From positions 9,052,001 to 9,116,000 of the forward strand of contig OZ024755.1 of NCBI GenBank assembly GCA_964016885.1: a stretch of 64,000 nt of DNA, in the 5' to 3' direction. This DNA comes from Eledone cirrhosa. Lineage: Eukaryota. The notes beneath the pieces are model-generated. The model searched no databases, was not told the DNA's origin, and saw nothing but the letters and a program-made list of their open reading frames with translations. The position numbers and the translations under genes are program-made. How positions within the stretch are numbered: the first letter of the stretch is position 1; every line of letters starts with the position of its first letter. Shown here one piece after another: positions 9,026 through 54,807 of this stretch.

Positions 9026-9067
9026 ACCGAGAACAATTGTTTCACCTTAGCGGATCCTCAGCTCGGT
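9026..9067 (-). ncRNA. Complete type I hammerhead ribozyme in an inverted-repeat element (8994-9198)
   Basis: ACCGAG-CTGAGGA-T-CC-gctaa-GG-T-GAAA-C-aatt-GTT-CTCGGT: 6-bp stem I, palindromic stem III ACAATTGT, GUU site. Confidence 0.8.
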
Positions 9068-9241
9068 GGGGATCTGCTAAGGTGAAACAATTGTTCTCGG
9101 TATGGTGAACTAACTGTTGTGTAACCACTTCTACCTAACTCGTCTCATGGACTGAGTGCTCTACCACTACGGATATTACCTTCCAGTGTTCTAACACTAT
9201 ATATATATATATATGTGTATGTATATATTTAATATAGAAAG

Positions 9242-9290
9242 GCTTCTACAGGACTAGAACTGTTTCATTCGGGAGAAATCATCAGGAAGC
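9242..9290 (-). ncRNA. Complete hammerhead ribozyme, family A (element 9228-9425)
   Basis: GCTTC-CTGATGA-T-TTC-tccc-GAA-T-GAA-ACAG-ttctagtc-CTGT-A-GAAGC; GUA site. Confidence 0.8.
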
Positions 9291-9337
9291 TTACTGATGA
9301 TTTCTCCCGAATGAAACAGTTCTAGTCCTGTAGAAGC
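9289..9337 (+). ncRNA. Second, oppositely oriented family A hammerhead
   Basis: Inverted copy of 9242-9290 with one stem I mismatch next to the core. Confidence 0.7.
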
Positions 9338-9528
9338 CTTTCTATATTAAATATTTATACTCTGCTTTGTATTGAGTACCTTACTTACTGTGGTTTACCC
9401 CGATTGAACCCGAGATAAACTTATGTATATATATATATATACGAAATATAAACGGAAACGACAAAGCAAACAACACAATATAATGTACATATATATTAGT
9501 TTAATTCTTGATATAATAGGGAAAAAGA

Positions 9529-13159: not shown

Positions 13160-13185
13160 TTAAAACAACATTGTTTTAACCGTTT

Positions 13186-13368
13186 GGTGGATTGGCAGTA
13201 TCGGTAGAGGGTCGGACGCCATGCTTTCCAGCATAGTTACGTCCCTTTACGATCTGAGTTCAAATCCCGCCGAGGTTGACTTTGCCTTTCATCCTTACGG
13301 GGTCGATAAAATAAAGTACCAGTAATGCACTGGGTAATTGCTGGCCTTGTGCCAAAAGTAGAAACAAT
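13186..13368 (+). mobile_element. SINE family 1, young short subfamily
   Basis: Near-identical to 17314-17496 and to the reverse complement of 26817-26999. Confidence 0.9.
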
Positions 13369-17720: not shown

Positions 17721-18280
17721 GTTGCACCAATATAAGAAATAAATATATTATCAAGAATCTACTAAATATAAATAAGATCTTGTAATACATAAACTTTAGA
17801 AAAAAAGATTCAACAATAAAAACATTTAACTGCTTTTATAGTTGTGCTTCTTTTTTACATTCTCTCTCTTGCTTATGTTTTTTTATTTATGCGAAGCATT
17901 ATCTACCATTCTCAGTCTATCATAGCTTACCAGCTTTACACGGACGTTTAAATAGTTTAAATAAATATTTTACGTTTTCCCCGCCTTTGTAATATTGGAT
18001 GTGAAAGCGATAGAGTTTTCAAGGTCAGAAAAGTTGTTACAATTTTTTTTCATTTTTTCATTGAAATGGGACACAGTTTTACTGTTTTGGAGTAAATGTT
18101 GGTGTAAAATGTGTGTCGGGCATCCATCGGTTAGGACAGCCAAAATTTCAGTTGTTTGAAGAACGGCCATCCTTCTCATGAAATTAACGTGCAAGTGGCT
18201 GAGCATTCCACAGACATGTGCACCCATAACATAATACTCGAGCAGATTCAAGTGCGTTAAACGTTACATTAACGCATATA

Positions 18281-21719: not shown

Positions 21720-21791
21720 TGACGTACATAGAAGTCGAACCCACATCTTTGGTTATCCGGACCACTGTGCTACCATTTACACCAACACATC
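21720..21791 (-). pseudogene. tRNA-like cloverleaf (tRNA pseudogene or derivative) inside a TA-flanked element
   Basis: Acceptor GATGTGT/GTACGTC, D arm GTGT/GCAC, anticodon arm TGGT-ccggata-ACCA, T loop TTCGACT, T5 run downstream. Many G-U pairs and a non-canonical anticodon loop. Confidence 0.6.
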
Positions 21792-22039: not shown

Positions 22040-22041
<2 letters not shown>

Positions 22042-22232
22042 CGAAGTAGTTGTGGTAAGGAACCAGATGGACCATAACGCACCAGAGTACTCAATACTTA
22101 GGGTAGTAGAGTGGGTAATAGGAGAAAGTATGAACCCGACGGCAGAGCTCAAGCCGTTTCGACGGCTATTTCTGCTAGTCCAGAAATAGCCGTCGAAACG
22201 GCTTGAGCTCTGCCGTCGGGGTCATACTTTCT

Positions 22233-22237
<5 letters not shown>
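22040..22237 (-). mobile_element. Family B TA-flanked element with inverted 5' duplication and half hammerhead
   Basis: Arms 22118-22174 / 22181-22237; each holds GAA-ACGGC-ttgagctct-GCCGT-C. Confidence 0.85.
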
Positions 22238-31351: not shown

Positions 31352-31542
31352 TTATATATATATATATAGTTTTAGCTTCCCGTCCCCACGTAAAATTTAT
31401 AAATCAGTGGCTAGTTGAGAGATAGAGTCCTATCGGGTGCCAGTTGCTAATAGCTTTACCGTGTCAGTCGTCACAAACAGTCATGGCCGGCATAGACTGG
31501 TCTTAGGATTCTCTCGATCGATTGGTTATTGATTAGGCGATA

Positions 31543-31652
31543 CCCGCTGATGAAGCCGCATAAGCCGATTGTGCATTGTTGCATAATATATGCAGACAGA
31601 TGGTGCAGTGCACCTTATTGCTGCATTAGTGCGGCAGAAACTCGAGTCCGGG
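31543..31652 (+). ncRNA. Complete hammerhead with about 80-nt structured stem II (family C, element about 31370-31790)
   Basis: CCCG-CTGATGA-A-GCCGCA...TGCGGC-A-GAAA-C-tcga-GTC-CGGG; inner helices GTGCATTGT/GCAGTGCAC and TGCATA/TATGCA. Confidence 0.85.
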
Positions 31653-31797
31653 AACCTTATAGGCACCCGTTTTACGTGTGTTGTGTTGAAGCAAATAACT
31701 TTGTGTATACTCTGGGAATGTATCTTACATTGCCCATGGAGTGGAGTGCGCTGAGATACAACCGGTCCTGGCATTGATAAATAATTATTATATATAT

Positions 31798-31841: not shown

Positions 31842-32011
31842 ATAGGAAACAGTATGACCCCGACGGCAGAGCTCAAGCCGTTTCGACGGCTATTTCTGGG
31901 TCATACTGCCGTCGGGGGTCATACTTTTTCCTATTTCCCACTCTACTACCCTAAGTATTGAGTACTCTGGCGTGTTATGGTCCATCTGGTTCCTTACCAC
32001 AATTCCTTTGT

Positions 32012-36812: not shown

Positions 36813-36890
36813 CTTTTACCGACGGTTTCGCCTCACAAAAGATTGGAAATCCAAGGGACTTCCAATGGAAAGATCGTACTCTTCAGAAAG
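36813..36890 (-). ncRNA. Hammerhead with about 50-nt stem II region
   Basis: CTTT-CTGAAGA-GT...TTGGAAGTCC-ctt-GGATTTCCAA...GC-GAA-ACCG-t-CGGT-A-AAAG. Confidence 0.7.
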
Positions 36891-50345: not shown

Positions 50346-50411
50346 TATTTTATTATACATATTTCAGAGGTACTGAGATATTTCAACAGTACGTCCTCAT
50401 CAGATAAAATA
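50346..50411 (-). ncRNA. Complete hammerhead (element about 50198-50475)
   Basis: TATTTTAT-CTGATGA-GGACGTACTG-11 nt-CAGTACCTCT-GAA-ATA-tg-TAT-A-ATAAAATA: 8-bp stem I, AUA site. Confidence 0.8.
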
Positions 50412-50928: not shown

Positions 50929-50978
50929 TAAACAAATAATGAACAAACAATTCCTTATATTAAACAAAAAAAGTTCAC

Positions 50979-51123
50979 TATTTAACGATCGTTTCTAGGG
51001 CATATATGTGCTATAATTGGTATGCATATTTAACAGATCTATGTACAAAATTATACAAAATTATACAAATTATCAAGATTAAATATACATACCTAACTCA
51101 TATATACGCCGTCTTCAGAAATA
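50979..51123 (-). ncRNA. Family D hammerhead, inverted copy
   Basis: Reverse complement of 51166-51310. Confidence 0.75.
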
Positions 51124-51165
51124 ATCAGAAATAATTATTTCAGAAATAATTATTTCTGAAATAAT

Positions 51166-51310
51166 TATTTCTGAAGACGGCGTATATATGAGTTAGGTAT
51201 GTATATTTAATCTTGATAATTTGTATAATTTTGTATAATTTTGTACATAGATCTGTTAAATATGCATACCAATTATAGCACATATATGCCCTAGAAACGA
51301 TCGTTAAATA
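51166..51310 (+). ncRNA. Family D hammerhead with about 115-nt stem II region
   Basis: TATTT-CTGAAGA-C-GGCGTATATATG...CACATATATGCC-cta-GAAA-C-gatc-GTT-AAATA. Confidence 0.75.
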
Positions 51311-51500
51311 GTGAACTTTTTTTGTTTAATATAAGGAATTGTTTGTTCATTATTTGTTTAATATTTTATCTTGACTCTGTATACCGTTTATCTTTCACCG
51401 AAATTGGATTTTCATTACATCTCTTCTTTCCATGATATCCGGAATACATTGAGTTCTTCATACGGATTGGACACTACCGTAAACTCTTGGTAGATTTATC

Positions 51501-51540
<40 letters not shown>

Positions 51541-51627
51541 TTAAATATACATACCTAACTCATATATACGCCGTCTTCAGAAATAATCAGAAATAATTAT
51601 TTCAGAAATAATTATTTCAGAAATAAT

Positions 51628-51772
51628 TATTTCTGAAGACGGCGTATATATGAGTTAGGTATGTATATTTAATCTTGATAATTTGTATAATTTTGTATAA
51701 TTTTGTACATAGATCTGTTAAATATGCATACCAATTATAGCACATATATGCCCTAGAAACGATCGTTAAATA
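51628..51772 (+). ncRNA. Family D hammerhead, tandem copy
   Basis: Same sequence as 51166-51310. Confidence 0.75.
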
Positions 51773-51962
51773 GTGAACTTTTTTTGTTTAATATAAGGAA
51801 TTGTTTGTTCATTATTTGTTTAATATTTTATCTTGACTCTGTATACCGTTTATCTTTCACCGAAATTGGATTTTCATTACATCTCTTCTTTCCATGATAT
51901 CCGGAATACATTGAGTTCTTCATACGGATTGGACACTACCGTAAACTCTTGGTAGATTTATC

Positions 51963-54463: not shown

Positions 54464-54592
54464 AGTTGATTGAACTAGCAGCACCGGTTGCATCTCAGCG
54501 TACTCAATAGGTAATGTTATGTAAGCTCCCAGAGTAGACACATAGTTATTCGCTTCAATACAACATACGTAAATGTGAACCTTCAATCTATA

Positions 54593-54703
54593 CCTGTACT
54601 CGAGTTTCGGCGACACTTAATGCAGCAATAGAGTGCATAGCATCTACTGTCTGCATTGATTATGCAACAATGCACAATAGGCGCATGTGGCTTCATCAGC
54701 GGG
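54593..54703 (-). ncRNA. Family C hammerhead, diverged copy (element about 54462-54725)
   Basis: CCCG-CTGATGA-A-GCCACA...TGTCGC-C-GAAA-C-tcga-GTA-CAGG. Confidence 0.75.
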
Positions 54704-54723
54704 TTTCACCTAATCAATAACCA

Positions 54724-54807
<84 letters not shown>

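Follow-up and report, generated by a model that had tools for sequence, protein, structure and literature searches.

A type I hammerhead with a large stem II domain, predicted to be branched, in a repeat of Eledone cirrhosa that is likely a non-autonomous Penelope-like element

The window analysed here is a stretch of 64,000 nucleotides of the Eledone cirrhosa genome (contig OZ024755.1, positions 9,052,001 to 9,116,000), and carries a type I hammerhead on its forward strand at 31543-31652. A first-pass annotation of the window had described an intact core, a 4-bp GC stem I, a palindromic stem III and a GUC site, and each of these parts is found exactly where it had been placed (Table 1). The motif has the CUGANGA and GAAA boxes, the NUH site and the A15.1-U16.1 pair of type I hammerheads, and the predicted cut follows the last base of the GUC, at 31648. 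CUGAUGA and GAAA are separated by a spacer of 83 nt. The basal helix of stem II has 7 bp when its terminal U·G is included, and is flanked at its foot by one unpaired base on either side (A31554 and A31636). In the predicted folds three helices surround the core, with stem I open, and stem III is stable solely as an intermolecular duplex.

Table 1. Position of the hammerhead, its stem II domain and the surrounding repeat unit in the window.
Feature	Position	Strand	Remarks
5'-truncated subfamily A copy of the ~840-nt unit	31370-31783	+	between (TA)n tracts; 94.9% identity over 414 nt to the A majority
P0, predicted hairpin just 5' of stem I	31512-31539	+	34/36 columns identical in the four subfamilies
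Stem I	CCCG 31543-31546 / CGGG 31649-31652	+	4 G-C pairs
Catalytic box CUGAUGA (31547-31553) and unpaired A31554	31547-31554	+	
Stem II basal helix, 5' strand	31555-31561	+	pairs with 31629-31635; carries both compensatory changes
Junction strand, 6 nt	31562-31567	+	unpaired in the folds of all four subfamilies
P2a, insert arm 1	31568-31587	+	8-bp hairpin with 4-nt loop; 19/20 columns invariant
P2b/P2c, insert arm 2	31590-31626	+	6-bp helix, bulged A, 3 bp, internal loop, 5-bp variable tip hairpin
Stem II basal helix, 3' strand, and unpaired A31636	31629-31636	+	
GAA (31637-31639), palindromic stem III ACUCGAGU (31640-31647), predicted cleavage base C17 (31648)	31637-31648	+	
Stem I 3' strand and downstream hairpin (predicted anti-stem I)	31649-31669	+	in the folds of all four subfamilies
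3' part of the unit	31670-31783	+	long predicted hairpin and start of the terminal hairpin that precedes the usual fixed end
Second copy, subfamily B (95%)	54480-54726	-	hammerhead 54703-54593, GUA site

That standard models would miss this form had been predicted, and is the case for Rfam: Hammerhead_1 (RF00163) aligns to the core with 13.9 bits (E 3.2) and misses its gathering score of 34. Core, stem I and stem III match the model position by position, and the score falls under the cut-off because of the 83-nt insertion, which is a limit of the model. When the whole window is scanned with Rfam, no hammerhead is among the 150 matches listed out of 307. We put down to chance a match of the motif to mir-33 (17.6 bits; cut-off 50). 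Subfamily A of the repeat (see below) has what we take to be an A-box-like stretch, and a B-box-like stretch presumably lies over stem III; a Pol III promoter was rejected as an explanation, the A-box-like stretch not being retained in subfamilies B and D.

The insert in stem II had been described as multi-helical, and folding bears this out. Its 83 nt fold at -35.3 kcal/mol (z -3.52), a stability equalled by none of 200 shuffles, and stem II is predicted to close a three-way junction with an 8-bp hairpin (31568-31587) and a long arm (31590-31626). The same junction is predicted for the majority inserts of all four subfamilies of the repeat (z -2.8 to -5.2), in which the stability of the stem II domain ranges from -32 to -41 kcal/mol. 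Two candidate pseudoknots starting from the junction strand were picked out by eye, one to an upstream GGCG and the other to the loop of P0, and neither shows covariation. P0, whose loop might pair in this way, is the most conserved part of the unit.

The repeat copy that contains the hammerhead stops some 20 nt short of the usual 3' end, and is 78% identical over 254 nt to the second copy in the window. The second copy has private mismatches in stem II (C·C) and stem I (C·A), which together with its GUA site indicate that it is decayed; its free fold is not a hammerhead (z -1.76). In this window, stem II domains of 11, 31, 50, 83 and 116 nt are found. The longest belongs to another type I hammerhead, present as three copies, tandem and inverted (51164-51312 and 51626-51774 on the plus strand, 50977-51125 on the minus strand), with an unbranched 116-nt stem II domain, a 7-bp stem I, a different palindrome and relatives at loci L161-L165. 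A minimal type I hammerhead at 9026-9067 (minus strand), whose stem II domain of 11 nt contains a C·C mismatch, lies in a short fold-back and is accompanied by an inverted half-copy reaching about 9110. Two more, at 50346-50411 and about 36820-36890 (both minus strand), have stem II domains of 31 and 50 nt, and the first of them matches the hammerheads that adjoin Hydra-type ORFs in loci L328-L330.

The window also contains other repeats. At 31845-32011 (plus strand) and 22041-22237 there is a short repeat, likewise inserted in (TA)n, that ends in a long fold-back and is of a type that often adjoins copies of the hammerhead unit (L009, L010, L021 and L024). A dispersed repeat of ~180 nt at 13185-13366 recurs in about eleven places (3001, 14445, 17309, 23491, 24306, 26818, 30530, 32873, 43577, 47280 and 47437); it contains what we take to be a tRNA B-box-like stretch and is probably a SINE. 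A tRNA-like sequence at 21720-21791 (minus strand) scores 33.2 bits in Rfam against a cut-off of 29, and a near-perfect inverted repeat of 112 nt at 9234-9345 has relatives at 18280, 49886 and 58468.

The hammerhead repeat is spread through the 3.0 Gb assembly that we searched, which is rich in (TA)n. The exact core pattern has 843 matches in the genome against none with the reversed control, i.e. at least 843 copies, and a DNA search yielded 3219 candidates, 40 of which were scored; the copy number of the repeat is in the hundreds to thousands. Measured from cut to cut, the unit is 839 nt long in L084 and 859 nt in L055. Its longest open frame is 114 codons (L084), and a tblastn search with Hydra protein against L084 gave no match. 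Copy ends were read from 90 loci, taken from the first 100 core-pattern matches listed on contig C1 after merging two close pairs and omitting seven matches already sampled and the last of the 100. The 3' end lies at +141 to +152 past the predicted cut in 79 of the 90 and is directly followed by (TA)4 in 75, and the 5' ends are ragged, extending from -103 to -833. Loci L076, L084 and L055 each carry two complete hammerheads one unit apart, the hammerhead sitting within the repeated end of the unit. The unit thus has the PLE hallmarks of a fixed 3' end, 5' truncation and partial tandem (pLTR) structure, and it is likely a non-autonomous Penelope-like element (retrozyme).

The unit has other features. 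A hairpin ~10 nt before the fixed end has tandem wobble pairs in 67 copies, Watson-Crick pairs in 17 and intermediates in 4, and by its position this hairpin would be a better candidate for enzyme recognition than the insert. About 180-275 nt past the cut, L084 and L055 contain an intron-like stretch that is absent from the copies in the window; it has GTAAGT in 42 of 45 copies and an AG end in 35 of 37, ~90-100 nt apart, with a variable interior. This putative intron signal recalls PLEs. Short-period tandem hammerheads 147 nt apart (L046:1363-1645) and a series of three hammerhead 3' halves (L089) suggest template jumps.

Hydra-clade PLEs, as described in PMC8557442, insert into (TA)n and carry hammerheads near the 3' end, many of them with one unpaired base on each side of stem II. 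The (TA)n preference of the unit fits this clade, though it is common to Naiads and hence not unique. Being non-coding and without its own RT, the unit is not itself a Hydra element. The RWK, DKT and CxCx5C motifs are found in a separate coding element, a young and abundant Hydra-type PLE of ~3.1 kb (L152:1087-4370 and L151) that has a hammerhead with an unbranched 90-nt stem II at both ends, and an inverted 5' copy. Hydra-type coding elements are abundant in the genome, and among 56 Hydra-type loci, in a genome that holds many more families, no autonomous partner shares sequence with the unit other than by nested insertion (L332 and L045). Since no coding element in the 56 loci shares its sequence, we infer a helper, and by analogy the unit is probably mobilised by a Hydra-clade enzyme.

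A set of 237 distinct copies falls into four subfamilies, A (110 copies), C (53), B (39) and D (35), with mean divergences in the pattern-drawn sample of 4.3%, 6.1%, 8.8% and 8.3%, respectively. In the rest of the unit, beyond the hammerhead, the four subfamilies agree at 440 of 737 columns, which sets a background of ~60%. They do not differ in stem I or in either core box, and at the subfamily level the cleavage base is C or A; as to a tertiary contact between stem I and stem II, the subfamily comparison shows no conserved extension of stem I. Within the insert, 31 of the 32 columns of P2a (19/20) and P2b (12/12) are invariant, against 15 of 25 in the distal arm, the tip of which is as variable as the background. 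The unpaired bases of the proximal insert are conserved in 12 of 16 columns, not clearly above the 60% background. When the real substitutions are moved to random positions, an equally stable fold arises in 0-0.6% of trials in four of seven comparisons, and the result is not significant in the other three (0.08, 0.08 and 0.27), the comparisons being non-independent. Selection is probably strong for the basal helix and P2a, moderate for P2b and loose for the tip.

For the base pair of stem II that is swapped between the two copies in the window, both covariation and CpG decay had been suggested, and the wider sample decides in favour of covariation. This pair (pair 4) is A-U in 116 and G-C in 104 of 233 copies. 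Subfamilies B, C and D have A-U, and subfamily A, which has G-C, is nested within C in a tree of 52 copies rooted at its midpoint. The change therefore created a CpG, going from an ancestral A-U to G-C, and CpG decay is rejected as its cause. At pair 3 there is a series from C-G over C·U to A-U, i.e. a break that was then repaired within subfamily A. The right-hand base is U in 23 of the 110 subfamily A copies, opposite C in 15, A in 7 and U in 1, and the right-hand base is U in all seven that have A on the left. The four A-U copies in the tree cluster with C·U copies (support 0.95), and the lineage with the C·U mismatch was itself productive (15 copies).

Both of these clean compensatory events are in the basal helix, which any hammerhead requires. 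Inside the insert, lineage changes are mostly one-sided and keep the pair (G·U to A-U or G-C), and in addition there is one series G-C, G·U and A-U at the top of the 3-bp step (18, 18 and 7 of 48). Among 48 distinct copies, 92.7% of cells pair, and 97.7% do so in P2a. Cells with a two-sided change are more numerous than in all 500 shuffles, a figure inflated by relatedness, and the number of pairs with a two-sided change, five, is not above the shuffles (257/500). RNAalifold, applied to 49 decayed copies, recovered just P2a and a small rival hairpin. The first-pass annotation had proposed looking for covariation across genome-wide copies, and this is found as compensatory change in the basal helix, but covariation inside the insert is thin. 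As the evidence comes from four related subfamilies, independent events are few. The structure of the insert is probably real and selected.

Folding also bears on how the hammerhead might act. In the monomer stem III contributes nothing (-36.2 against -36.5 kcal/mol), and the self-duplex of the palindrome has -10.7 kcal/mol. A two-copy co-fold places both cores in the active secondary structure, in agreement with the dimer model for PLE hammerheads set out in PMC4209133. Adding 30 nt of 3' flank places the active fold 5-10 kcal/mol above the MFE. In all four subfamilies a hairpin downstream of the cut (31649-31669) could take up the 3' strand of stem I, and is a possible on/off switch.

The ends of copies give no sign that the ribozyme cuts. 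A first set consists of 15 loci, i.e. the 16 loci represented by 100 listed matches, less one internal duplication; none of the 15 starts on the cut base, so that there is no pile-up of 5' ends at the cut. Two of them start upstream and thirteen downstream, eight of these at a TATA microhomology 10-12 nt from the cut and five elsewhere, and the set is uninformative on cleavage. For a test at the upstream cut site, 30 long copies were fetched by the 5' part of the unit; nine cross the site, another two end 4-9 nt beyond it, and not one begins at the site itself. Copies that cross the cut site make it likely that the copied RNA was uncut or circular. PAc is described as inserting from unprocessed RNA in vitro (PMC11167929), and circles are proposed for PLEs (PMC4209133).

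We propose a model in which tandem or read-through transcripts would bear two hammerheads, joined as a double hammerhead by pairing of their palindromic stems III. The stem II domain, which is very stable, would fold first and out of the way, keeping the core boxes together, and the weak stem I of 4-5 bp would compete with the downstream hairpin, making cutting slow or protein-assisted. A Hydra-clade RT/endonuclease would nick (TA)n, and copying would start ~150 nt past the cut beside the conserved hairpin. Uncut or circularised RNA would then be copied through one, and sometimes two, cut sites. In this model we consider it fairly probable that the motif is a type I hammerhead in a non-autonomous PLE unit and that its stem II domain serves as a structural scaffold, not as cargo. 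The scaffold role was arrived at by elimination among the roles that the insert might have, and is more likely than a cargo because the genome contains many long stem II domains (11-116 nt). The suggestion that the insert is a protein-binding or packaging cargo finds no support in that form, given that its unpaired bases are conserved in 12 of 16 columns against a background of 60% and that oversized domains of this kind are seen across many unrelated families of the genome, and we keep it as a minority reading.

Among the alternatives, it is rather unlikely, in our estimate, that the insert is a handle for the borrowed Penelope protein or for a host factor and links the assembly of the RNP with folding or circularisation of the ribozyme. 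P2a and P2b are near-invariant in sequence and do not covary, no lineage with a short insert was amplified, the coding Hydra elements of the genome have long stem II domains too, and the hammerhead of PAc requires its own protein to cut (PMC11167929). However, the conservation of the unpaired bases does not rise clearly above the background, the inserts of other long-stem families have no BLAST similarity to the unit, PAc templates that are 5'-truncated to +20 of the ORF, which starts at stem II, still insert, and the conserved hairpin beside the RT start would make a better handle. A regulatory form of the idea, which we hold to be improbable, makes stem II an allosteric module that would dock on the upstream hairpin or bind the Hydra reverse transcriptase and so switch between stem I and anti-stem I, allowing the helper to gate cutting and circularisation. 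If true, the long stem II domains of the Penelope elements of this genome would make up a whole class of regulated hammerheads overlooked by present models.

The insert might also be the tolerated growth of a permissive helix by local duplication, held by selection only to folding off the core and without a job of its own. Its composition and tip would suit such an origin, the palindrome TGCA occurring six times in the 83-nt insert against once in the remaining 698 nt and the tip varying as much as the background, as would the continuum of stem II domains in the genome, from 11 to 116 nt. Deletions speak against it. Spacers of 70 nt or less are found in 30 copies genome-wide, all of them internal deletions of the full insert, some of which recur between short repeats, and none of these 30 has founded a subfamily or an amplified short-insert lineage. 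Elsewhere in the unit, by contrast, the subfamilies differ by several indels of 5-21 nt. This argument is only moderate because source elements are few, and we regard growth without function as doubtful. A further reading takes the motif for a hammerhead look-alike that is dead or was never active and has been kept for some other role of the DNA or RNA, such as promoter or endonuclease recognition. It would agree with copy ends that bear no trace of cutting, with an active fold that is not the MFE in context and with the poor cutting of PLE hammerheads in vitro (PMC4209133), but is very improbable in view of the identical stem I and core boxes of the four subfamilies, the restriction of the cleavage base to C or A and the compensatory repair in stem II.

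Elsewhere in the genome, a long-spacer pattern that excludes this repeat family has 2343 matches against 12 in the control. Most of the 2343 are probably the L152-type element, and at other loci the stem II domain measures 12-60 nt or 75-99 nt. The other folded domains are mostly single irregular stems, and it is the stable branch that distinguishes this repeat family. Hammerheads in PLEs and retrozymes were already known, with their role open, and the published animal examples have a short stem II as far as the accessible literature goes. Large branched stem II domains now appear to exist as well, seemingly kept by selection in a mobile lineage and scoring below library cut-offs; as large stem II domains fall under these cut-offs, hammerhead counts in such genomes are too low. 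The repeat provides a natural test system, with four subfamilies, a pair that was broken and then repaired, 30 deletion variants and copy ends that point to uncut or circular RNA.

In the literature searched, which was mainly open, a branched stem II of this size did not turn up in any natural hammerhead, and longer examples may be present in the supplementary alignments of PMC4209133 and of the 2026 preprint. The hammerheads of Hydra PLEs (PMC8557442) resemble the one described here in being type I, in lying near the 3' end, in their short near-palindromic stem III and in their association with (TA)n. By a hand count the stem II domains in the Hydra rows of File S2 (n=26) are of ~12-26 nt, whereas the present one has 83 nt, is branched and is found in a unit without an ORF. 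The largest stem II in that file, at ~54 nt, is flagged as non-canonical and belongs to PLE-X1_sMoe, a plant EN-minus element that differs from the unit in having a smaller stem II and no junction in its description.

Animal non-LTR retrozymes (PMC7229834; 10.64898/2026.07.22.740005) are non-coding like the unit, with one type I hammerhead per unit and head-to-tail repeats, and they have been proposed to be non-autonomous derivatives of PLEs, as we propose for the unit here. The length of the unit falls within the 51-972 bp reported for them, although it exceeds the typical ~300 nt and its copies are mostly dispersed and 5'-truncated. It also differs from them in that stem I is not seen to extend and make the usual contact with a loop. 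PAc, a Poseidon element of Anolis (PMC11167929), shares with it an AT-rich target, an internal RT start downstream of the hammerhead and uncut RNA, but is coding, belongs to another clade and has a short stem II, and its activity was observed in vitro, that of the unit being a matter of deduction. The minimal hammerheads of PLEs (PMC4209133) likewise have a helix I of 4-5 bp, a helix II of 7-8 bp, the G10.1-C11.1 pair, an unpaired base at the 5' end of stem II and a palindromic stem III for which a dimer model was put forward. Their helix II ends in a loop, whereas here it is predicted to close a three-way junction, and the hammerhead is, in our model, a new structural variant of the PLE or retrozyme hammerhead.
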